DNA of 62,790 bases, filler included, from an uncultured Methanosarcinales archaeon (GTDB taxonomy: Archaea; Nanobdellota; Nanobdellia; Woesearchaeales; CAYXTQ01): assembly GCA_964608065.1 (NCBI GenBank). It is 8 parts of 8 records of this genome, joined end to end, with 100 filler letters (N's around TTAATTAATTAA, not from the genome) between each part and the next. Parts side by side here need not be neighbours in the genome. Positions count along the whole stretch, not along the records: positions 8,244 to 16,367 come from CAZSMA010000068.1; 7 more parts are not named here. The stretch is one strand, 5' to 3'. The notes under the pieces were generated by a model. It was not told where the DNA came from and searched no databases. It saw nothing but the letters and a program-made list of their open reading frames with translations. Position numbers and translations under genes: made by a program. Shown in pieces: positions 8,144 through 56,101 of this stretch. How positions within the stretch are numbered: position 1 is the first letter of the stretch; every line of letters starts with the position of its first letter.

Positions 8144-8243
8144 NNNNNNNNNNNNNNNNNNNNNNNNNNNNNNNNNNNNNNNNNNNNTTAATTAATTAAN
8201 NNNNNNNNNNNNNNNNNNNNNNNNNNNNNNNNNNNNNNNNNNN
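8144..8243. other. Artificial contig linker (N44-TTAATTAATTAA-N44); same at 16368-16467, 24439-24538, 32447-32546, 40352-40451, 48183-48282, 55875-55974
   Basis: Identical 100-nt N blocks carrying a six-frame stop linker; contig lengths decrease monotonically. Confidence 0.98.
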
Positions 8244-9116: not shown

Positions 9117-9281
9117 ATGAAAGTTGTTCTAAACAAGAACCAGTACAAGATAACTATTCCTAAAGAGCTTGCCGAAGAGAATGGATGGGGTCCTGGCACT
9201 AAGATAAGATTTGTTGAAGATCTAGATGGAAGAATTTTTTTGAAAGTTACAGATAAAAAACCCCTTAAAAGAAAAAAATGA
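9117..9281 (+). CDS. AbrB/MazE/SpoVT-family DNA-binding protein (54 aa, absent from ORF track)
   Basis: MKVVLNKNQYKITIPKELAEENGWGPGTKIRFVEDLDGRIFLK; ATGA overlap with next gene. Confidence 0.85.
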   Translation: MKVVLNKNQYKITIPKELAEENGWGPGTKIRFVEDLDGRIFLKVTDKKPLKRKK

Positions 9282-10687
9282 ATGATAAAAACATAATGAA
9301 AAAAAGGGAAAACGAAAAGGATGAAAAAATGAATGAAAAAGAATTCAAAGTTATTTTGCAAGAAGGGGAAGGGCTTAAAATAGAATTCAAAGAATCTTTT
9401 GATAAGTCCATTGCTAAAGATATCGTAGCTTTTGCTAATTCTACAGGAGGAAGAATTTTCTTAGGGATTACTGACAAAAGAATTGTTAAAGGGATTGAAA
9501 TAACAAATAAGCTGAAATCACAGATTCAGGATTTGGCTAATAATTGTGATCCTTCGATTAAAGTTGAATTAAAGCAACTGGAGGATATTTTAATTATTGA
9601 AATTAAAGAAGGGAAAGATAAACCTTACAAATGCAGGGATGGTTTTTACCTAAGAGAAGGAGCCAACTCTAAAAAATTATCACGTAATGAACTATTAAAG
9701 CTAGTTGTTGGCTTAGGAAAAGTTAAATTCGATGAACAAATAAACAATGACTTTAATTTTCCTAATGACTTTGATAAAGAGAGATTTTCAGAATTCCTGA
9801 AAAAAATGGGTATTTCTAAAGTTATTTCTACAAAAGAGATTCTAACCAATCTTTCTCTTGGAGCCTCTATAGATAAAAGATTTAGATTAAACAATGCTGG
9901 TATTTTGTTATTTGCGAAAAACCCTGAAAGATTTATTAGGCAAAATTTTATTAGTTGTGTTTTGTATAAGGGCAAAGAAAGATTGAAGATTATTGACAGG
10001 AAAGATTTCAAGAATGATTTATTAACAAATTATGAAGATGGAATCAGCTTTCTTAAACAGCATCTAAGAGTAGAGTATATTATAAAAGGGACAGGGCCAA
10101 GAGAAGAAAAATTTGAATTGCCTGAAGAAGCATTAAGAGAATCTTTGCTCAATGCAATCATTCACAGAGACTATTTTGAAAAAGGATTTGGAATCTTTGT
10201 AGAAATTTTTGATGATAGGTTAGAAATAACTAATAAAGGAAAACTGCTTTTTGACAAAAAGAAATTAGGAAAGATAAGTTTTCCAAGAAATCCAATCCTT
10301 TTTGACGTTTTCTACAGAATTGGCTTAATTGAAAAAGTAGGTAGTGGAATAAATAGGATCAAGAGTTTAATTAAAAAAAGAGGACTGGAAGTCAGATTTA
10401 AGATAGATGATTTTTTCAGAGTTGTTTTCTATAGGTCTGGGGTAAGCAAAGCAAAAGACACTGTAAAAGACACTGTAAAAGACACTGTAAAATTGTTATC
10501 TAAAAATGAAAGGCTTATTTTAGAAGAGATGAGGAAAAATCCTAAGATTACGTCAGAAGAATTATCGCATTTACTAAACATAAACATCAGGAATACAAAG
10601 AAGAATATTGAAAAATTGAAACAAAAAGATTTGCTAAGAAGAATTGGAAGTGCAAAAGGAGGACATTGGGAAGTCACTGAAAAATGA
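9278..10687 (+). CDS. Schlafen/AlbA_2 + HATPase_c_4 + wHTH protein (copy 1)
   Basis: EFKES..AFANSTGG..EALRESLLNAIIHRDY..EKVGSG..IGSAKGGHW; 12-bp tandem repeat (DTVK)x3. Confidence 0.9.
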   Translation: MNDKNIMKKRENEKDEKMNEKEFKVILQEGEGLKIEFKESFDKSIAKDIVAFANSTGGRIFLGITDKRIVKGIEITNKLKSQIQDLANNCDPSIKVELKQLEDILIIEIKEGKDKPYKCRDGFYLREGANSKKLSRNELLKLVVGLGKVKFDEQINNDFNFPNDFDKERFSEFLKKMGISKVISTKEILTNLSLGASIDKRFRLNNAGILLFAKNPERFIRQNFISCVLYKGKERLKIIDRKDFKNDLLTNYEDGISFLKQHLRVEYIIKGTGPREEKFELPEEALRESLLNAIIHRDYFEKGFGIFVEIFDDRLEITNKGKLLFDKKKLGKISFPRNPILFDVFYRIGLIEKVGSGINRIKSLIKKRGLEVRFKIDDFFRVVFYRSGVSKAKDTVKDTVKDTVKLLSKNERLILEEMRKNPKITSEELSHLLNINIRNTKKNIEKLKQKDLLRRIGSAKGGHWEVTEK

Positions 10688-12039
10688 ATGATAAAAACAT
10701 AATGAAAAAAAGGGAAAACGAAAAAACAGAATTCAAAGAGTCACTACATCTAAAAGACGAGATAGGAATAGCTGTATCAGCGTTTGCAAACAAAAAAGGC
10801 GGCAGATTAATTATAGGTGTAAGTGATGATGGTAAAGTTAAAGGGATACAATCCGGAAAAAATACAATAGAAGAATTAGCCAATTATATTAAAATAAATA
10901 CAGACCCAAAAATATATCCTACTATACAATCTGAAGATAGATTAATAATAATAGAAGTTAAAGAATCCAGTGAAAAACCGGTTTTCTTCAAGGGAACTGC
11001 CTATATTAGGATAGGCAAAAGCAGCCATAAGCTAAGTTCATCTGAAATAAGGAGATTAGTAAAAGAAAGCAAAAAGAGTTATTGGGACGAACAACCTTGT
11101 GAAGAATCCAGCTTAGAAGATATCGATAATAGTAAAGTAAGATGGTACTTAGAGCAAAGGGAAAAGCACAGAAATGTATCTAAAAAAATTAAAATTTCAT
11201 TGAATAAATTTTTGGAGAATATTAAAGCTGTTAAAGATAGAACATTAACAAATGCCGGTATTTTATTCTTTGGAAAAAATCCTTTGATAAAGATATCTTG
11301 TGCTCAGCTTAGACTTGTAAAAATAAAAGGAAGGGAAATAAGCGGAACAATTCTTGATAGATTAGACTGCAACGGAACTTTATGGGAAATGGTTGAGCAA
11401 GCTGAGAATTTTCTAAAGGAGCATATTAATTTCATGGGTTTTAGAACTGCAAAAAGTTTCCAGAGAGAGGATAAGTTCGATATTCCAATTGAAGCTTTAA
11501 GAGAGCTGATAATCAATGCTTTGATACATAGAGACTATGAAACAACTGCAGATGTTAGAGTATTTGTTTTTGACGACAGAGTTGAGATAATCAATCCAGG
11601 CAGTTTCCCAAAAGGAGTGACTCCAAAGATGCCTTTGCACAAACCTGTGAATAAAGTGCTTTCACAGTACATGTATGACATAGGTTTTATTGAAAAATAT
11701 GGCTCAGGAATAGTTAATGTAAGATCCCTGTTAAAGGAAAATGGGAACAGAGATTTAGAATACGTTCTTCATGAGATTGAGACAAAAGCAATTGTTTATT
11801 CCCAGATTGACTATACTGAAAAGGTCACTGAAAAGGTCACTGAAAAGGTCACTGAAAACCAAAGAAAGATCCTCAACAGCATACTCAAAGATAAAACAAC
11901 AACTATCAAGGAAATGTCTAGGATAGTAGGTATTTCAGAGAGGAAAATCAAGGAGAATATTTCCAAATTAAAGAAAAAAAAGGTGCTTAAGAGGATTGGC
12001 TCTGCAAAAGGAGGACATTGGGTTGTTTTAAAACAATGA
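10684..12039 (+). CDS. Schlafen/AlbA_2 + HATPase_c_4 + wHTH protein (copy 2)
   Basis: EFKES..AFANKKGG..EALRELIINALIHRDY..EKYGSG..IGSAKGGHW; (TEKV)x3 repeat. Confidence 0.9.
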   Translation: MNDKNIMKKRENEKTEFKESLHLKDEIGIAVSAFANKKGGRLIIGVSDDGKVKGIQSGKNTIEELANYIKINTDPKIYPTIQSEDRLIIIEVKESSEKPVFFKGTAYIRIGKSSHKLSSSEIRRLVKESKKSYWDEQPCEESSLEDIDNSKVRWYLEQREKHRNVSKKIKISLNKFLENIKAVKDRTLTNAGILFFGKNPLIKISCAQLRLVKIKGREISGTILDRLDCNGTLWEMVEQAENFLKEHINFMGFRTAKSFQREDKFDIPIEALRELIINALIHRDYETTADVRVFVFDDRVEIINPGSFPKGVTPKMPLHKPVNKVLSQYMYDIGFIEKYGSGIVNVRSLLKENGNRDLEYVLHEIETKAIVYSQIDYTEKVTEKVTEKVTENQRKILNSILKDKTTTIKEMSRIVGISERKIKENISKLKKKKVLKRIGSAKGGHWVVLKQ

Positions 12040-12173
12040 TTAATAAAACAATAAGGCAAGGATTTGTATTGTTTTTCCTAGTTCTTGCTTTAGTTTCCTC
12101 TGTAAAAGCAGTTTCAGTTTCACATACAGCAACTGCTATTTACAATAGAGCTAATAAGGAAAAAGGTGAATAA
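12036..12173 (+). pseudogene. Orphan signal-peptide mini-ORF (45 aa), paralog of the N-terminus of the 14042 secreted protein
   Basis: MINKTIRQGFVLFFLVLALVSSVKAVSVSHTATAIYN...; 24 bp identical to 14134-14157. Confidence 0.75.
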
Positions 12174-13226
12174 ATGAAAAAAGCAGTAAAAAAAAAGTAT
12201 AATAAAATATTCAGAAATATAGTAAATCACATTGAACAATCAAAACTAAGAGCTTTTGCTGAAATAAATAAGGCGCTTTTACATGCTTATTGGAACATAG
12301 GAAGGGAACTAAGCAAAAACGTTTCTTATGGAAAATCGGTTGTGGATAAGTTATCCAGAGATTTGAGATTAAAATACCCTCGTGCTAGAGGTTATTCTAT
12401 CAGAAACTTATGGAATATGAAGAGATTTTATGAGAGTTACCAAAAACTCCAGTCACTGTCTGGAGAATCTAAAAAACTGCAGGCACTGCCTGCAGAATTG
12501 CTTCAGGTCTCATGGACAAATCATGTACTCATACTAGATAAGACAAGCTCGGATGAAGAAAAGCAATTTTATTTAAAGATGTGCCTAAAGGAAAGATGGA
12601 GTTCAAGGGGGTTGGAACGTCAACTTGATTCCTCATTATTTGAAAGATACATGCTCGCAGACAAGCCAGAAAAAGTAACTGCATTAATACCAAAACATGA
12701 AACTAAAGATCTAAGCAAACATTTCAAAGATGAATATGTTTTGGAATTCTTAAACCTAAGAAAAGAATATTCAGAACAAGAGCTTGAAAAATCAATTTTA
12801 GATAACCTTAGAGATTTCTTTCTAGAGTTTGGAAAATCATTTACTTTTGTTGGTTCACAGTATGTCATTGATATTGGAAGAAGAGAAAACAAAATTGACT
12901 TATTATTTTACCATAGGGAACTAAGGTGTTTAGTAGCAGTTGACCTTAAAATTGGAGATTTTAAAGCTTCATATGTAGGTCAGATGCAAAAATATCTTGC
13001 AGCTCTAGATGAAAAAATAAGACTATCTGAAGAAAAGGAAAGTGTTGGTTTAATACTTTGCAAATCCAAAAATCATGAAGAGGTAAGATTTACTCTTGCT
13101 AAGACACTATCACCTGTAAAAGTTGCAACCTACAAAACAAAGTTGCCTGACAGGAAATTGATAATCAAAAGGTTAGAACAATTTAAGATTAAAGATGATG
13201 ATTTTATTAAAAAAAAAAAAGGTTGA
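12174..13226 (+). CDS. YhcG/DUF1016 family PD-(D/E)xK nuclease-domain protein
   Basis: AYWNIG..RNLWNMKRFY..SWTNH..KDEYVLEFL..IDLLFYHRELRCLVAVDLK..GQM..GLILCK. Confidence 0.93.
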   Translation: MKKAVKKKYNKIFRNIVNHIEQSKLRAFAEINKALLHAYWNIGRELSKNVSYGKSVVDKLSRDLRLKYPRARGYSIRNLWNMKRFYESYQKLQSLSGESKKLQALPAELLQVSWTNHVLILDKTSSDEEKQFYLKMCLKERWSSRGLERQLDSSLFERYMLADKPEKVTALIPKHETKDLSKHFKDEYVLEFLNLRKEYSEQELEKSILDNLRDFFLEFGKSFTFVGSQYVIDIGRRENKIDLLFYHRELRCLVAVDLKIGDFKASYVGQMQKYLAALDEKIRLSEEKESVGLILCKSKNHEEVRFTLAKTLSPVKVATYKTKLPDRKLIIKRLEQFKIKDDDFIKKKKG

Positions 13227-13385: not shown

Positions 13386-13903
13386 TCAAAGCGGAAAAAT
13401 TGAAGACTATTTAGATACTGTTGTAGCTTTTAGAAATAAAGAACAATACACAGTTTTACTAAAAAGGAAAATTAAAAACGAAATTTTAACTGAATATAGA
13501 AATAAACACAAAGATATTCACTATAGATTATTTGCAATTCTTATCNNNNNNNNNNNNNNNNNNNNNNNNNNNNNNNNNNNNNNNNNNNNNNNNNNNNNNN
13601 NNNNNNNNNNNNNNNNNNNNNNNNNNNNNNNNNNNNNNNNNNNNNTATCATTGTATTAAGAATTATCAGGATAAAGTCCAATTAATTGTAATTGATGATG
13701 AATATGAAAAAAGAGGAATTGACATTAAAAAACACCTTCTAAGATTCATTTGGAAAGATTATCCTAACTTTGACAAGAAGTTGATTAGGTTTTCCAGGAT
13801 TGGGAAAAAATCTAATGCCCACAGATTGGCATATCAGACATTTATTGGTAAATTAGCTCCAAACAAAATCATAACTGCAGATGAGGTTAAGAAATTAATA
13901 TGA
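13369..13903 (+). CDS. Putative RNase H-fold / DUF3800-like protein (spans an internal N gap)
   Basis: N-terminal IEVDQSG (cf. hYhDESG), central IVIDDEY, C-terminal KSNAHRLA; N gap 13546-13644. Confidence 0.55.
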
Positions 13904-13909
13904 GATTAA

Positions 13910-14006
13910 GAAAAAATCAGGGGATGTTACATAGTAACATAGTATACGCCTACAGCGAGTCTAGCAGATGCTTTCTCACAGTCAGCGCAGCACCCATCAT
14001 ACTACC
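13910..14006 (-). ncRNA. Candidate small structured RNA, convergent with the DUF3800-like gene
   Basis: GC-enriched ~90-nt island; minus-strand TTTATATA box at 14030-14023; ATGTTAC/GTAACAT hairpin; ends in a T-run. Confidence 0.4.
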
Positions 14007-14041
14007 AACAAAGAATAACTACTATATAAATTTTACTAAAA

Positions 14042-16367
14042 ATGGTTAATAAAAACAAGGCTAAGATATTGCAGATTTTCACTAAACATATTCCTATAGT
14101 TCTGATAGTATTAACACTACTACCTCATGCTCTAGCAGTTTCAGTTTCACATACAGCTTCAAACATTTACAATGGAACATTTTCAGGAGGAAACTATTAT
14201 TTCCCTGTAAATTTAACAGTTGACACTAGTGATTTACATGTTGATGGTACTGGTGGTGCTGTTGGTATTGGAACTGTAGAGCCAAAGTCAGGATTTAAGT
14301 TAGATGTAAGAGGTGCAATAATTGCTTCAGGTGAAAGTAATTTAAGCTTAGGCTGCGGCAACATAACAGGAGCTACAAGTGATTTATGTACTTTAGTTGA
14401 TACTGGTGGAAGTGGTATTACAAATGGAACAGATGCTACTTTCGCTAAAGTTAACATGACTGAACTAAATGTAACTGGCTTATGTGTTGCAGAAGACTCA
14501 TTAATAACAATGGAAGATGGAACTAAAAAAATAATAACAGAAATTAAACCAGGAGAGCAAGTTTTAAGCTTAGATGAAAAAACAAATAAAATTGTTTCAA
14601 ACAAAGTTAAAGCATTACTGGATATGGACATAAAGCCTGTCTTCAACCTTACAACCAAATCAGGAAGATCAGTAAAAACAACTGGAAACCACCCATATTT
14701 AACTCCAGAAGGGTGGGTGAAAGTAACTGAGTTAAATGTTGGTGATGAAATAGCAGTTCCAGAATTAGTGGGCTTGACGAGCGAAGCGAGGAAACCCACG
14801 AAGGTGCCAGCTGACTTCTCAGCTGCTGGAAACCACCCATATTTAACTCCAGAAGGGTGGGTGAAAGTAACAGAATTAAGCATTGGAACAAAAATTGCAG
14901 TACCTAAAATAGAAAACAATCATTTAAGAAACTTTACGGTTGCGGAGTCTCTGAAATTTGCAAAGCAAATTTCTGAGAAACCAGAAATCAGCAAAGCTGA
15001 TTTCTCAGTTCAACGTAAAGGTTTAGAAACCACTTTAGTGGTGCCAGAAGCTTTGCTTCTAAGCATCTATGATTTCAAAAACATATCAACTAATTCAGGA
15101 GTAGAATACACCTTAACAGCATCCTGCTTTTTGAAATCATCCTCTCTTGACCAAATTGCACAACCTAAATGCAAAGCTAATGCAAAATACGGAATATCTT
15201 TGCTGTGTGGCGCTAATTTCTCTGCTTTGGATTGCAGTTCAGGAGAGAATTTGTATATCGGAAATATCTCAACTCTTTGTTTAAGAATTTCAAACTCCTC
15301 TCTAATTTTGGACTCTGTAGAACCGCAAATCTTAGCCATTGTTCCTGCATTCTTATTAAACTCCTTAATCAGATATGGCAATGCAACTAATCTCAACTTG
15401 TCTTCAAAAAATAAATCATTAGTCTTGCCCTTGCCAATAATAGCTGCAAATAAAACAGTAGCATCTACAACTAATTCCATTTATTTTGCCTCACGAAAGC
15501 TTTTAGCTACTGCTTCAGAAATCTTATCAGTAAACTCTTTAGCATCTTCATCTGAGATTTTAATTTTGGATGAAAGCGTTTTAAGCCTCCTTAACTTTTC
15601 AGCTTTATCAAATATTGCTCTCCTAGCTACCTCAGACCAATCCAGCTTAAACTCGTGCATACTTTTCTCTAATTCATCTGGTACAGATATTGTTATTGTT
15701 CCCATTTTAATATCACCAGAGCATAATAATGAAAATGACTATTTAAATGTTATGGAAAACAATAATATCAATTTAAAAGATAATAATCCCACCCACCCAC
15801 CCCAAACCACATCCTTAATAGCAATATCAACATTGGAGCAAAGCGATATCTCTTTGAAATCAGAGATTTCTGATGTCTTCTGGGATGAAATTACAAGTAT
15901 AGAATACATCGGAGAGGAGCACGTCTATGACTTAATGATAGAAAACACCCATAACTTTATTGCAAACGATATTATTGCTCATAATACATATATTAGTGAT
16001 AATGCAAGCTTTGACAGCGGAACATTATATGTAGATGCAGCAGATAATAGGGTCGGCATCGGGACGACTAGTCCTGATGCCATATTAGAAATAGTAGGTG
16101 TAAATAGTTTAGACCCAATTCTTTTAGATAAGGGAACTGGAGAAACTGGAATTAAGTTTACTTTTGATGGAACAAACTATGTTAGTTATATTAGGACGGT
16201 TGAGGCAGGTACAATCGCAGATAATTATATGACTTTTGGTGTTTCTCAAGGTGCTAATACAAATTCTTTAGAAGTGATGAGGTTAAAAGGCGACGGCAAC
16301 GTCGGCATCGGCACAACAGCTCCAAAATCTTTATTACAAGTTGAAGATGGTAATGTAACATTTAACA
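14042..16367 (+). CDS. Large secreted/surface protein with VGIGT (tail-fibre-like) repeats and an intein; 3' truncated
   Basis: Signal peptide ending ALA|VS; three (G/N)xVGIGT repeats; many NxT sequons; intein at aa 148-648. Confidence 0.85.
15067..15480 (-). CDS. PIN-domain (VapC-like) toxin nested antisense in the intein
   Basis: LVVDATVLFAA..E..KDIPYFALAL..IWSREDDFKKQ..VYSTPEL. Confidence 0.88.
   Translation of the reverse strand: MELVVDATVLFAAIIGKGKTNDLFFEDKLRLVALPYLIKEFNKNAGTMAKICGSTESKIREEFEILKQRVEIFPIYKFSPELQSKAEKLAPHSKDIPYFALALHLGCAIWSREDDFKKQDAVKVYSTPELVDMFLKS
15481..15705 (-). CDS. CopG/RHH-type (VapB-like) antitoxin nested antisense in the intein
   Basis: MGTITISVPDEL..DWSEVARRAI; TAA directly abuts the toxin ATG; GGTGA RBS at 15717-15713. 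Confidence 0.88.
   Translation of the reverse strand: MGTITISVPDELEKSMHEFKLDWSEVARRAIFDKAEKLRRLKTLSSKIKISDEDAKEFTDKISEAVAKSFREAK
15740..15755 (-). promoter_or_regulatory. TATA promoter of the nested TA operon
   Basis: Minus-strand AACATTTAAATA, same as promoter-like motifs at ~42197 and ~44596. Confidence 0.6.
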
Positions 16368-16558
16368 NNNNNNNNNNNNNNNNNNNNNNNNNNNNNNNNN
16401 NNNNNNNNNNNTTAATTAATTAANNNNNNNNNNNNNNNNNNNNNNNNNNNNNNNNNNNNNNNNNNNNATATAACAACTAATATATAAAACTTTCGGTTGT
16501 TATATAGAGAAAAAAAAAAAAACAATAATCAAATTCAATAATAATAAAAGAAGGAATA

Positions 16559-24399: not shown

Positions 24400-24585
24400 A
24401 AAATATAATCCAGAATTAGATAATATATAAATGTTACTNNNNNNNNNNNNNNNNNNNNNNNNNNNNNNNNNNNNNNNNNNNNTTAATTAATTAANNNNNN
24501 NNNNNNNNNNNNNNNNNNNNNNNNNNNNNNNNNNNNNNACATTTTAAGAAACCTTTTTATATAATGATTTCTAATAGGTTATAGT

Positions 24586-32446: not shown

Positions 32447-33359
32447 NNNNNNNNNNNNNNNNNNNNNNNNNNNNNNNNNNNNNNNNNNNNTTAATTAATT
32501 AANNNNNNNNNNNNNNNNNNNNNNNNNNNNNNNNNNNNNNNNNNNNCCCATGAATTTATGGTTAATTTTATGTCATTTGGTTTTAAATAGATTTTTAGGT
32601 TGAAAAATATACTATAAATCACAGAAAATAAGTATCACACTCGATAAGTTGTTAATGGATTTAGAAGTTAGTTATCGACGATGAAATTGGAATTTTAAGA
32701 AACCACACTTAACTGGTTGTAACACATACGATTTATAAACCTAACTACGTCTATTTTTGCTACTTTTTTTGTATAACTATGTGTTTAATAATTTAGTGAA
32801 TTTCTCTTTTAAAAAATGAATATATATTGATAATGGATAAATAAGTGAGATGTAAACACAAGGGCTATCATCAGAATAGTTAGTTTGTTCATTTTTGTTT
32901 TGAATAAATCTGATCAAAAAAAAAAAACTACACCTCTTTTTGATTTAANNNNNNNNNNCAAAAATATTTTTTTTTTTTTTTTATTATTTTTTAAGAGTTT
33001 TTTATTTAAAAAAAAAAAAAAAAAAAACACCTCTTTTTGATTAAACCTCAATTTCCCATGATTTGATGGATTAATCTATAATAAACAATTATAAATACAT
33101 TTGCAGATTGCAAACTATATTAAAGAACACAGAAAAAAAGTGTCAACATTGAAAGAGTATTAATAATAATAATTTAGTTTTATAGTCGAAATAGAAAACA
33201 AAGATTAGGAATCACTTTAAGCAAGTCATATCAGTTAGAATTTATAAACTTAACTAACGGTTTTTTAATTACTTTTAATATATAACCTATTGTCTATGGA
33301 GTAAGTAATGATTTTATTGAATTTTCTCATCTATTTTTTTATTTTTTTTTTTTTTTTTT

Positions 33360-36722: not shown

Positions 36723-39005
36723 ATGATAATATGTAAAGATGGTAAAAGGGAAGGTGAAATGAGAAATGGTTTTGAAGATGGTTTTATACCACTAGAACCA
36801 TTAGACTTGTCTAAAATCAAAAATTTTGATGATTTAGCTAAATCTATGTCTCATACTGCTTTTGCTGGACGTGCTCTAGGTGAAGCAGTAGATGTTTTTG
36901 AAGCAATGGTCAAAGACCCTGATTGTTTTGTAGTCCTTACATTATCAGGAGCGATGACTCCTGCAAAAATGGGCTTGATTGTATGCGATATGATAGATAA
37001 AGGAATGGTTAATGCAGTTGTCTCAACTGGATCTTTAATGACTCATGGATTTGTAGAAGCACAAGGAATGACTCATTTTAAATATGAACTAGGAAAAATG
37101 AATGATAAAGAGTTGTACTATAAAGGCTATGACAGAATTTATGATATAATTGAATTAGAGAAGAATCTAGATGATACTGAGTTGATATTTAGGGAGATTA
37201 TGAAAGATTTAAATCTTGATGAAGTTTTGTGCAGCAGAAGGATTCTTGAAGAATGCGGAAAATGGTTAAAGAAAAATACAAAAGGAAGAGGTATATTAAA
37301 AAGCGCTTTTGAAAAGAAAGTTCCAGTCTATGTTCCTGCATTCACAGACTGTGAGATGGGGCTTGATTTTGGTATTTATAATCTTAGAAAAGAAAAATTC
37401 AAGGAAAAACCATTTAGATTCGATCCTTTCCTTGATCTAAACCATTTTACAGAATTAATCAAAAAACAAAAGAAACTAGGAATCTTTACAATTGGCGGTG
37501 GTGTTCCAAGAAACTGGGCACAGCAAGTTGCCCCTTATATTGATATAATTAACAAAAGAATGGAAAACCAATGTCCTGATTGTGAGGGCAAAGGTTGTAA
37601 AAAGTGCGGAAATAAAGGTTATTTGAAAGATAGAGGAGTTCCTGGAACAATGTATACTTATGGTGTAAGGATATGTCCTGAGCCGGTGCATTGGGGAGGA
37701 TTATGTTTGCACGGAGATACAAAAATAGAAATCCCTAGAAACCTAGAAGAAGCTCCTGAAGGAGTACCTATTAGAAATCTTGCTGGAATGTCTAATATTC
37801 CCGTCTATTCTTTCGATAGTACTAAAAAAAGAATATGTATATCTAATATAAGACATGTGTTAAAAACAGGAAAAAAGAAGCTCTACAAGATCAAATTTTC
37901 TTGGATCTCTGGTTGGGGCCAAAAAGAAAAAAAACTAAACAGCAGATATATAGTTGCTTCAGCTGATCATAAATTTCTTATGCGTGATGGTAAATACAAA
38001 AAGGTTTCTGAATTAAAGTCAAATGATCGGTTAATGCCTTTTAATACTTATTATAAAGCAGATACGCATGGGGATTATAGGTTTATTAGTCTGAATAACG
38101 GAAAAAGAATTGCTGAACACCATCTTATAGCACAGGCAATGTTAGAGGAGCCTTTTGATGTAGATGACGTTGTTCATCATAAAGATCATAATACTCTAAA
38201 CAATGATATCAATAATTTAATTGTTATGAATAAAAGAAAACATATAAGTTATCACCGCTCTGTTGAGACCTTGGAAACAAGGAAAAAACGAGCTAAAACC
38301 CTTTCAGAGATTTCTGATCCGGAAAAAATGAGAAAAAAATCAATGAAGTTCTGGAATAATCTCACTAAAGGGGAATATGAATTGTTATGTTTAAATAGAA
38401 AGGAAGTAGCATTAAATCCCAAGGAAAGAATTAGAATATCTAATGTATCAAAGACTTACTGGAATAAGTTATCAAAAGAACAAAAAAAAATAAGGCTAAT
38501 AAACGCGCATAATGCTACAAAACAAAGATGGTCAGAAATGGATCCTGAAGTAAGATCCAAGTTAGTATTAAATGAAAAAAATCCTAAATTCATAAAAGGG
38601 ATTGCAGAAGATAAAGTAAAAGATGCATTAATTAAAGAGAATGGGTCTATAAAGAACGCAGCAAAAAAGCTTGATGTTAGTGTGAAAGTATTAAACAAAA
38701 GAAGAGAAATATATGGAATAAACAGGGATTGGATATCCCAAAATTGTATAGAAAATCATTTTGTTACATCTGTAGAATATTATGGTGAAGACGAAACTTA
38801 TGATATTACAGTGGACAACACCCACAACTTTGTCGCAAATGGGATTGTTGTATCAAATAGTGGCTGTACTTATAGTGAAGGTGTTTCATGGGGAAAATTC
38901 AAACCTAAATCAGAAGGTGGAAGATGGGCAGAAGTTTTAGCTGATGCTACTATAGCTTGGCCAATTATTGTCAAAGCTGTTATGGAAAGACTAAATATTA
39001 AATAA
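36723..39005 (+). CDS. Deoxyhypusine synthase-like protein 2, intein-containing
   Basis: LSGAMTPA, GYDRIYD, GGGVPRNW, WGGL|SGCT, EGVSWGK, DATIAWP. Confidence 0.9.
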   Translation: MIICKDGKREGEMRNGFEDGFIPLEPLDLSKIKNFDDLAKSMSHTAFAGRALGEAVDVFEAMVKDPDCFVVLTLSGAMTPAKMGLIVCDMIDKGMVNAVVSTGSLMTHGFVEAQGMTHFKYELGKMNDKELYYKGYDRIYDIIELEKNLDDTELIFREIMKDLNLDEVLCSRRILEECGKWLKKNTKGRGILKSAFEKKVPVYVPAFTDCEMGLDFGIYNLRKEKFKEKPFRFDPFLDLNHFTELIKKQKKLGIFTIGGGVPRNWAQQVAPYIDIINKRMENQCPDCEGKGCKKCGNKGYLKDRGVPGTMYTYGVRICPEPVHWGGLCLHGDTKIEIPRNLEEAPEGVPIRNLAGMSNIPVYSFDSTKKRICISNIRHVLKTGKKKLYKIKFSWISGWGQKEKKLNSRYIVASADHKFLMRDGKYKKVSELKSNDRLMPFNTYYKADTHGDYRFISLNNGKRIAEHHLIAQAMLEEPFDVDDVVHHKDHNTLNNDINNLIVMNKRKHISYHRSVETLETRKKRAKTLSEISDPEKMRKKSMKFWNNLTKGEYELLCLNRKEVALNPKERIRISNVSKTYWNKLSKEQKKIRLINAHNATKQRWSEMDPEVRSKLVLNEKNPKFIKGIAEDKVKDALIKENGSIKNAAKKLDVSVKVLNKRREIYGINRDWISQNCIENHFVTSVEYYGEDETYDITVDNTHNFVANGIVVSNSGCTYSEGVSWGKFKPKSEGGRWAEVLADATIAWPIIVKAVMERLNIK
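37704..38858 (+). mobile_element. Intein (385 aa) with HNH homing endonuclease
   Basis: CLHGDTKI start; ASADHKF block B; EHH..VHHKDHNTLNNDINNL..H..YH; YDITVDNTHNFVANGIVVSN + Ser+1. Confidence 0.92.
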
Positions 39006-40351: not shown

Positions 40352-40451
40352 NNNNNNNNNNNNNNNNNNNNNNNNNNNNNNNNNNNNNNNNNNNNTTAAT
40401 TAATTAANNNNNNNNNNNNNNNNNNNNNNNNNNNNNNNNNNNNNNNNNNNN

Positions 40452-48181: not shown

Positions 48182-48365
48182 TNNNNNNNNNNNNNNNNNN
48201 NNNNNNNNNNNNNNNNNNNNNNNNNNTTAATTAATTAANNNNNNNNNNNNNNNNNNNNNNNNNNNNNNNNNNNNNNNNNNNNATTTTTTTATTGTTTTTT
48301 TCAATTATATTCATTTTAAATTTTTTAAAATAAAAAAAATATTTTTAAAAAAAAAAAAAAAAAAA

Positions 48366-55874: not shown

Positions 55875-56101
55875 NNNNNNNNNNNNNNNNNNNNNNNNNN
55901 NNNNNNNNNNNNNNNNNNTTAATTAATTAANNNNNNNNNNNNNNNNNNNNNNNNNNNNNNNNNNNNNNNNNNNNTGAATTATCTCCAAAGCATGGCCGCA
56001 ATGGGGTTTATGATTGGGATATGCAATAGCTGTTGTTACATATATTTTTTTGAATTAAACCACCTATTGGAGTAGAAACTAGTCAGTGTTTAAAAACTTT
56101 A

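Follow-up and report, generated by a model that had tools for sequence, protein, structure and literature searches.

A stop-free intein frame over an antisense, predicted toxin–antitoxin operon in an uncultured archaeon, and related inteins with antisense cargo

The window analysed here, a 62,790-nt stretch of DNA from an uncultured Methanosarcinales archaeon (GenBank assembly GCA_964608065.1), carried an intein of 501 codons at 14483..15985, and a predicted toxin–antitoxin (TA) operon was encoded on the opposite strand between the two halves of its splicing domain. The intein interrupted a host open reading frame (ORF) on the plus strand. The features of the locus, in window coordinates, were as follows.

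14042-16366, plus strand: host ORF (from the ORF list), running off the contig at 16367
14042..14482, plus strand: N-extein, with a hydrophobic signal-like N-terminus and the 'VGIGTxxP' repeat motif
14483..15985, plus strand: intein, 501 codons without a stop, from Cys1 (TGT) at 14483 ('CVAEDSLITM') to the His-Asn end at 15985, followed by Thr at +1
14483..14768, plus strand: N-terminal splicing region, with block A, block B 'TTGNHPY' and the strand 'WVKVTELNVGDEIAVP'
14769..14825, no strand assigned: GC-rich 57-nt spacer between the duplicated segments, GC up to 0.45; fold z -1.3, not significant
14826..14912, plus strand: second copy of block B and its strand, a direct repeat of 14682-14768 with 83% identity
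14913..15066, no strand assigned: four consecutive palindromic hairpins directly downstream of the toxin stop, open in the plus frame
15067..15480, minus strand: PIN_2 toxin gene, 137 aa, VapC-like nuclease (PF10130, 3.9e-18)
15481..15705, minus strand: putative ribbon-helix-helix (RHH) / VapB-like antitoxin gene, 74 aa, its stop abutting the toxin ATG
15706..15757, minus strand: operon promoter and leader, with Shine-Dalgarno GGTGA at 15717-15713 (-12) and TATA box TTTAAATA at 15747-15740 (-42)
15758..15868, plus strand: linker from the cassette to block F, open in frame, no family
15869..15985, plus strand: C-terminal splicing region (TIGR01443), blocks F and G 'VYDLMIENTHNFIANDIIAHN', then Thr
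15986..16367, plus strand: C-extein, first residue Thr, 'VGIGTTSP' repeats, ending with the contig

A preliminary description of this DNA had claimed a stop-free plus-strand intein of 501 codons, and the ORF, Pfam and NCBIfam analyses all agreed with it. The Pfam Intein_splicing match (1e-30) was split over residues 8-501 with its halves 318 residues apart, and both the NCBIfam N-terminal (TIGR01445 intein_Nterm, ORF residues 148-221) and C-terminal (TIGR01443 intein_Cterm) intein models matched. The plus frame at this locus contained Intein and Hint families alone, with no homing endonuclease domain. In the AlphaFold2 model of the intein, residues 1-68, 131-143 and 462-500 were confident (pLDDT 70-89), while residues 144-461 stood at a pLDDT of ~22. 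The model used the second copy of the duplicated strand, with a pLDDT of 73 at 131-143 and <50 at 69-130. Its best matches among solved structures were mini-inteins, namely Ssp DnaB 6frg (E 1e-5), NpuDnaB 4o1r, and Mtu RecA, 2imz, over ~145 aligned columns. The HINT fold could be assigned from the Pfam match together with the model match, the overall model confidence being low because of the insert. These results fit a mini-intein into which a long disordered loop has been inserted, and splicing of this intein is predicted.

The minus strand of this loop encoded a compact operon. The acidic residues of the PIN domain were well preserved among 11 sequences (D6 in 10/11, E40 and D95 invariant, E or D at position 113 in 11/11), and the PIN profile matched the solved archaeal PIN protein PAE0151 (2fe1) at 7.6e-6. 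The toxin had 83 database relatives, mostly on contigs of 0.5-1.5 kb, evidently a sign that the cassettes are frequent break points in assembly. In the monomer model of the antitoxin (pLDDT 65), three helices came after an extended N-terminus, an arrangement compatible with an RHH fold, although the fold is putative. The TATA box, ribosome-binding site, antitoxin and PIN toxin reported earlier for the minus strand were all recovered at the positions listed above, the RHH identity again being putative. The downstream hairpins were also present, four in number, and the plus frame ran without a stop through both these and the promoter, as had been claimed. The hairpins had a minimum free energy of -51.7 (minus) and -49.5 (plus) kcal/mol with z of -5.6 and -5.1, so that either strand folds equally well; they may represent a terminator or an inserted element. 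An Rfam search of 13646-16367 gave no family at threshold, and weak matches to snoR1, sR2 and mir-2063 (17-22 bits) were treated as chance. The sR2 (C/D-box sRNA) match at 14738-14791 on the plus strand extended from the tail of the first repeat copy into the GC-rich spacer; at 20 bits it fell short of the gathering score (42), and it is probably chance. No tRNA was found in the window by ARAGORN.

The TA frame and the intein frame share their third codon positions. A plus-strand stop in this wobble-sharing frame needs TAN after a pyrimidine-ending codon or CAN after a T-ending codon. The purine-ending context previously noted for the stop-prone codons of the TA genes was found in 12/12 cases (10 Tyr/His/Gln codons and 2 stops), of which 4/12 were forced by a preceding Met or Lys. 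When synonymous codons were permuted within the two TA genes, the plus frame was open in 167/20000 trials, and resampling of the PIN gene alone gave an open fraction of 0.003-0.004. The first resampling used codon tables from few ORFs per locus and was repeated with extein codon usage. Across 48 other proxy genes of the window read in the same antisense frame, there were 0.029 stops per codon and 31/5088 segments of 213 codons were open, while the other two antisense frames contained 0.072-0.077 stops per codon; the wobble-sharing frame is the least stop-prone of the three. The remaining two plus frames of the window intein held 55 and 39 stops. The caution that an open frame by itself is no more than moderate evidence holds for the single locus (P ~0.003-0.008) and is superseded once the family-wide result given below is counted.

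Related inteins were sought in protein databases and in genomes. A protein search with the whole plus-strand ORF revealed that 10 of 120 listed matches have intein middles homologous to the plus-strand peptide; 9 of those 10 listed matches were flanked by intein parts, and the hosts were 'VGIGTxxP'-repeat proteins. Six inteins were aligned, and species-representative genomes were scanned with two N-terminal intein motifs. Because both patterns lie in the N-terminal part of the intein, the scan was blind to open frames. It returned 24 loci, of which L007, L017 and L024 hold a truncated intein only (L numbers denote genome loci from the motif scan, and P numbers denote database proteins). The metagenome-assembled genomes containing the loci were labelled as Woesearchaeota, Nanoarchaeota, 'uncultured Methanosarcinales archaeon', Omnitrophota, Patescibacteria, Oligoflexia, Verrucomicrobiota, and Altarchaeum. 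In the remaining 21 loci, which come from independent assemblies, 22/22 intein spans were free of stops, had a length divisible by 3, and ended in His-Asn with Thr as the next residue (Cys in one). The 21 locus spans together with the window comprised 8853 codons, with 0, 705, and 944 stops in the three plus frames. Plus-frame stops in related alleles, which the preliminary description had listed among the observations that would tell against it, numbered 0 in all 22 related spans. The same in-frame architecture was seen in 15 spans; these came from different projects as well as different assemblies, with contigs of up to 236 kb.

All 22 related inteins keep the motifs of blocks A, B, F and G (Cys/Ser1, TxxH, and His-Asn plus nucleophile). 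The nucleophile at position 1 is Cys in the window and Cys or Ser in the related inteins, and the TxxH of block B occurs as 'TTGNHPY', in two copies, in the window and as T..HP[YF] in the relatives. Residues 15-73 of the window intein were 50-66% identical to related inteins, and the C-terminal splicing region was 54-64% identical. The linker at 15758..15868 has a far shorter counterpart in L001 and L013. The endonuclease that had been reported missing between the blocks was likewise absent from both the window and the 22 related spans (E<=1e-3). The element in the window is one member of a widespread, apparently undescribed class and not a unique case. This class is supported as one of endonuclease-free inteins that lie in giant surface-protein genes of ultra-small archaea and some bacteria and carry antisense TA cassettes.

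Toxin-type genes were found in 15/22 spans, always on the minus strand. L013, which carries the window's cassette at 80% protein identity (by tblastn only, being outside the Pfam scan), is counted among the 15. The cargo identified with Pfam, all of it antisense to the intein, was distributed as follows.

PIN_2: L001, L006, L010, L019, L020, L021, and three in L022
PIN (PF01850): L022
DUF433 with DUF5615: L002, L003, L005, L008, L009, L014, L020, L022
ParE_toxin with an upstream small gene: L004 (Omnitrophota)
DUF2283: L022
Aspartyl-protease-like gene: L019, 352-843

We take DUF433/DUF5615 and PIN with RHH to be predicted toxin-antitoxin pairs. The antitoxin gene of the window was conserved upstream of the PIN gene in seven loci (the window, L001, L013, L022, L010, L020, and L021), and the cassettes of L001, L013, L022 and P0001, homologous in other respects, lacked the hairpin element. 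Two insertion sites could be distinguished, one after block B, as in the window, and one just after block A (L019 and L020). The intein span of L022 (2864-6109, 3246 nt) contained three cassettes and no stop; upstream of that span lay at least 3 more cassettes, with block A off the contig, and the whole L022 locus of 7280 nt was a single open plus frame. Block positions in L022 and L015 were set by hand. Of all Pfam-supported antisense genes, 26/29 were located between intein blocks, the other 3 belonging to the upstream L022 array whose block A is off the contig, and the exteins contained 0; inteins make up about 1/4 of the host ORF length.

The cassettes carried their own expression signals. 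A TATA-like box was present 29-43 nt upstream of the first gene in 12/18 cassettes examined. PIN cassettes had a short leader with GGTGA (at -12 in some), DUF433 cassettes looked leaderless, and the Omnitrophota cassette had a bacterial TTGACT promoter with a AAGGAGGTGA ribosome-binding site. The plus-strand translation of the promoter signals ('SP...YLNV') was conserved in distant cassettes.

Further elements were observed inside inteins of this family. Antisense ORFs without a family match lay within the inteins at L006 3153-3554, L018 959-1168 and L010 2288-2614; they comprised two small hydrophobic proteins and a shared small ORF beginning 'MPKLVMTVKLG'. An in-frame element of ~270 nt occurred at L016 980-1260 and L013 3707-3978 (after block A) and at L022 3133-3387 (after block B), the copies being 81-93% identical. 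Part of it is tRNA-like, as ARAGORN predicted a tRNA-Leu(CAG) at L016 1130-1215, which was below the Rfam gathering score; Rfam on 15 loci recovered ordinary tRNAs only, outside the inteins. In the Patescibacteria locus L012 (3950-4996), a sense-strand NYN (PIN-like nuclease) domain occupied the place of the endonuclease, the only such case among the 22 spans, and many inteins of the same family with a sense-frame NYN domain were present among the listed protein matches (e.g., P0006, P0023, P0024, and P0040).

The codon usage of the cargo could be compared between the two kinds of antisense placement. Ten genes (8 DUF433, ParE, and the PF01850 PIN) are placed codon-on-codon, so that a plus-strand stop would come from a cargo TTA, CTA or TCA. 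These three codons accounted for 0/112 Leu and Ser codons in the codon-on-codon genes and for 120/296 in ten wobble-sharing PIN_2 genes. In the exteins of the same loci, TTA and CTA made up 33-74% of Leu. Within operons, TTA, CTA and TCA numbered 0/79 in DUF433 versus 96/198 in DUF5615, with a Fisher p of 1e-18 that is inflated by the kinship of the cassettes. Synonymous codon choice in the cargo is thus restricted in a way that keeps every stop out of the intein frame.

Selection on the TA reading itself was evident from the comparison of the window with L001, L013 and L022, in which dN/dS was 0.07-0.12 in the TA frame versus 0.11-0.19 in the plus frame. Differences among the four close cassettes were concentrated at the shared third position (e.g., 27/20/101 at positions 1/2/3), and replacements were more conservative in the TA frame than in the plus frame in 6/6 pairs. 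With a synonymous difference of 0.57-0.72, the cassettes have diverged for long, with turnover of third positions, and no plus-strand stop has arisen. The TA proteins are the constrained reading and are under purifying selection. That the plus frame is kept open over the TA operon, as first proposed from the window, is supported by the 22 open spans and by the frame-tuned codons of the cargo. As a free-standing control for codon context, plasmids were searched with the PIN protein by tblastn; the 5 haloarchaeal matches, all on GC-rich replicons, were unsuited to an AT-rich genome, and the control was discarded.

The nucleotide similarity of the window to L022, L001 and L013 (77-79%) was confined to 15073-15755, that is, to the operon and its promoter. 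In the splicing domain (residues 15-73), inteins with DUF433/DUF5615 cargo were 64-66% identical to the window and those with the same cassette 56-64%; identity being similar regardless of cargo, the type of cargo does not follow intein similarity. A repeat search revealed the duplication of the block B region in the window (14682-14768 and 14826-14912), and the cassettes of arrays in L022 and P0008 were separated by a repeated intein strand '...EL.EG.EIAVP', like the duplication in the window. From these patterns, recombination in conserved flanking parts of the intein is the probable route by which cassettes move from one intein to another, and the duplicated flank of the window looks like a scar of such recombination. 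In P0001, which comes from another metagenome, the same cassette (78% identity, antisense reading) lay beside a truncated DUF1016 gene and a mere scrap of intein.

Other candidates for mobility were considered as well. An inverted repeat matching at 20 of 23 positions (15065-15087 / 15845-15867) was examined as the ends of a mobile cassette and rejected, as it is not conserved in L001, L013 and L022, where homology ends at ~15755. The hairpin element, the GC-rich spacer and the promoter region had no further copies in the window. No attC-like site common to the cassettes was found; the window and the loci were not scanned for integrase. Among the protein matches listed, P0031, which is named a site-specific integrase, combined integrase domains with Intein_splicing.

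Taken together, we consider it likely that the window contains a cis-splicing, endonuclease-free intein whose loop has been colonised by an autonomous antisense type II TA cassette, with both strands under selection. Splicing of the precursor, expression of the TA pair, toxicity and addiction are predicted from sequence. In the proposed course of events, the host gene would be translated straight through the cassette, giving 200 to >1000 disordered, meaningless residues within the intein. The HINT halves would still associate, and splicing would discard the peptide along with the intein, so that insertion would cost the host protein nothing while the frame stays open. Antisense orientation alone would let the cargo carry a stop codon of its own while the host ORF reads on, and the cassette would be transcribed from its own promoter. 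The TA pair could then penalise loss of the intein through post-segregational killing, replacing homing as a means of persistence, and the intein would offer selfish cassettes a safe harbour within a very compact genome. The idea of a safe harbour for cargo had been put forward from the window itself and has since gained support from the open spans, the tuned codons, the confinement of cargo to inteins and the lack of an endonuclease.

We lean, if only slightly, towards a wider reading of the family, in which inteins of ultra-small archaea and bacteria form a gene-cassette platform with exchange at the splicing blocks and with addiction in place of the endonuclease; as part of the same reading, the cargo of this platform would include several TA families, small ORFs and even tRNA-like elements. 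Three unrelated TA families recur in two intein loops, singly or arrayed.

Several observations weigh against the intein-harboured cassette. In resampling, one PIN_2 gene had a P(open) of ~0.96, and three others had values of 0.19-0.26. When the antisense-derived peptide (plus strand of 15065-15757) was searched against 1.84 billion representatives, 63 matches were obtained, and an Intein or Hint domain was present in only 12/62 matches scanned in Pfam. All of the short matches read (11/11) start with Met; 7 end just past the translation of the TATA box and 4 continue into extein- or intein-like sequence. Those seven are most simply explained as cassettes outside an intact intein with a chance-open antisense frame, and the open state of the short matches may reflect ascertainment, only open frames becoming database proteins. 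Together with the high P(open) values, they make openness of the wobble-sharing frame weak evidence when taken alone. In P0133 (2339 aa, Laminin_G_3), a cassette array was read through as two antisense-peptide stretches at ~1380-1800, flanked by three copies of the host segment 'FLSDFIPxATSKEKEYxSFxDITNKV'; no Intein or Hint match was found in this protein even at E<=5, and no block motifs lay within 450 residues. It may be that some cassettes can do without an intein, or that P0133 contains an unrecognised processing domain.

The splice junction and the antitoxin are open to objection as well. An intein-free 'NVTGF|TYL' site was not found by regular expression among 265 proteins and 23 host ORFs, so the junction is a predicted one, and we infer from conservation alone that the intein would splice with a 318-residue foreign insert. 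The sole family match of the antitoxin was to the VapB-like NF050799 (1e-6, 29 bits, below the cut-off of 60), and the 74-aa protein had no Pfam match and no solved relative that could be found. Neither TA protein of the window matched a known defence system in PADLOC. Finally, the copy in the window is confined to a 2.7-kb piece with a scaffold gap on one side and the contig end on the other.

The alternative that survives best, though we regard it as improbable, is that the cassette is a host-serving module, acting in defence or abortive infection or tuning the surface protein through convergent transcription, with persistence of the intein as a by-product. It would account for the conserved promoters of the cassettes facing the host gene, for the defence-island-like array of at least four cassettes within one intein, for the two Schlafen/AlbA_2-HATPase genes and the YhcG nuclease gene on the same contig, and for the purifying selection on the TA proteins. 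However, 0/6 cargo proteins tested matched PADLOC, nothing ties the TA pairs functionally to the surface protein, and the presence of three unrelated TA families in the same loops fits opportunistic colonisation better than a dedicated regulator. TA pairs can also persist as selfish elements without benefit to the host.

Tolerated insertion without splicing, in which the peptide would stay as a disordered loop and the frame would be open only so that the downstream part is made, seems very unlikely. All 22 inteins keep their catalytic motifs, which would be lost over time were splicing no longer needed; in the model, the two ends come together as a mini-intein fold; and 26/29 cargo genes lie between intein blocks in ORFs of which inteins form only about a quarter. 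These points stand against the cassettes of P0133 in a giant protein without a detectable intein, the modular and repetitive nature of the host protein, and the duplicated and rearranged block B segment of the window, each of which such tolerance would explain.

Chance or decay, that is, a host or TA pseudogene or a coincidence in the easiest antisense frame, can be dismissed almost entirely, for although that frame is the least stop-prone (0.029 vs 0.072-0.077 stops per codon) and some PIN_2 genes are open with P ~0.2 or more, it is opposed by the locus P of 0.003-0.008, the 0 stops in 8853 codons, the codon contrast of 0/79 vs 96/198, and the dN/dS of 0.07-0.12 with intact ORFs and catalytic residues. 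The related loci, being 22-80% divergent, are not copies of one misassembled sequence. Equally hard to credit is an assembly or binning artefact that joined a foreign TA cassette into an intein: the 2.7-kb piece between gap and contig end, the repeats and the short contigs of most PIN relatives (0.5-1.5 kb) would suit it, but the same in-frame architecture recurs in 15 spans from different assemblies on contigs up to 236 kb, and a chimera would lack codon usage adapted to the intein frame.

The anatomy in the preliminary description was correct in its coordinates; what it missed was the chain of contigs with the cut host ORF, the gap at 13546-13645, and the duplication of block B. The following junctions and gaps were recorded.

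8144-8243, 16368-16467, 24439-24538, 32447-32546, 40352-40451, 48183-48282, 55875-55974: spacers N44-TTAATTAATTAA-N44 between contigs of ~8 kb
13546-13645: 100-N scaffold gap within a part
32949-32958: gap within a part

As the window consists of concatenated contigs, genes across a spacer are not true neighbours. The intein locus lies on the contig at 8244-16367, in the piece that extends from the scaffold gap at 13546-13645 to the contig end, and the host ORF is cut at 16367 because the contig ends there. The exteins in the window matched no Pfam family, and the 'VGIGTxxP' motif resembles giant surface or tail-fibre-like proteins. Host ORFs of the relatives were 1300 to >3100 aa long with the same motif, most of them running off their contigs, and some carried Peptidase_S74 or Laminin_G_3 domains. 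The host is a giant repeat-rich surface-protein gene, and the organism is probably a DPANN archaeon.

On the same contig, upstream of the host gene, two tandem paralogues combining Schlafen AlbA_2, HATPase_c_4 and winged-helix domains were found on the plus strand at 9278-12039. The region 12018-13226 (plus strand) contained a 51-codon ORF that shares its N-terminus ('AVSVSHTA..IYN') with the host protein and, directly after it, a YhcG/DUF1016 PDDEXK nuclease gene. In P0001, a DUF1016_N fragment was fused to the antisense reading of the same TA cassette. The YhcG/DUF1016 nuclease may be linked to these intein loci.

The system can be compared with several that are already known. A conventional intein was present elsewhere in the window, at 36723-39005 on the plus strand, with a deoxyhypusine synthase (PF01916) as its host and a sense-strand HNH_3 endonuclease, and it offers a contrast from within the same genome. 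The intein described here resembles such homing-endonuclease inteins in its HINT blocks A, B, F and G and in a large in-frame insert in the loop between B and F, but its insert is an opposite-strand operon with its own promoter and stops, whose plus-strand reading is meaningless, and its host is a surface protein, not a conserved enzyme. Without an endonuclease, these inteins have no homing mechanism. Mini-inteins (Ssp DnaB 6frg and NpuDnaB 4o1r) likewise have no endonuclease and align with the model over ~145 columns at a template modelling (TM) score of 0.48-0.55 relative to the target, whereas here the halves are 318 residues apart, separated by predicted disorder that encodes opposite-strand genes. 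With VapBC type II TA systems the operon shares the antitoxin-toxin order, the abutting stop and start, the PIN acidic residues and the short genes; it differs in that the whole operon lies inside the frame of another gene with constrained synonymous sites, and its antitoxin family is putative.

Selfish TA cassettes, sometimes arrayed, stabilise DNA that is mobile or dispensable, for instance plasmids and chromosomal integron arrays, presumably by preventing its loss. The present cassettes are similar to these in being selfish pairs in exchangeable cassettes and sometimes arrays, but the carrier is here a protein-splicing element in a coding region, with a reading-frame constraint.

Two further systems reportedly place two coding functions on the same DNA and tie a toxin to another gene: the Rpn toxin–antitoxin pair, a gene within a gene with same-strand, same-frame internal initiation (PMC10327210), and STALEMATE, a synthetic sequence entanglement (PMC12455656). 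The present arrangement differs in being natural and antisense, with one reading destined for removal. The consulted parts of PMC4853749 and PMC9957025 had no bearing on antisense genes in inteins. No description of genes or TA modules nested antisense in inteins was found in open-access full text and bioRxiv, although one may exist elsewhere.

The finding also concerns annotation, as gene callers choose either the long plus-strand ORF or the small cargo, and many database "proteins" are the meaningless antisense reading. These loci are among the clearest natural long antisense overlaps (0.7 to >3 kb), and selection on both strands is readable from codon usage. For engineering, the finding suggests a tolerance of inteins for unstructured inserts, even very large ones, and points to cargo laid over a spliced-out region as an evolutionarily stable form of entanglement. 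The class may explain the common endonuclease-free inteins with large unexplained inserts in giant proteins of DPANN and candidate phyla radiation (CPR) organisms. If the interpretation is true, a new niche for TA pairs exists inside the discarded part of a protein, and these inteins would persist by addiction instead of homing, in a symbiosis of two classes of selfish elements.

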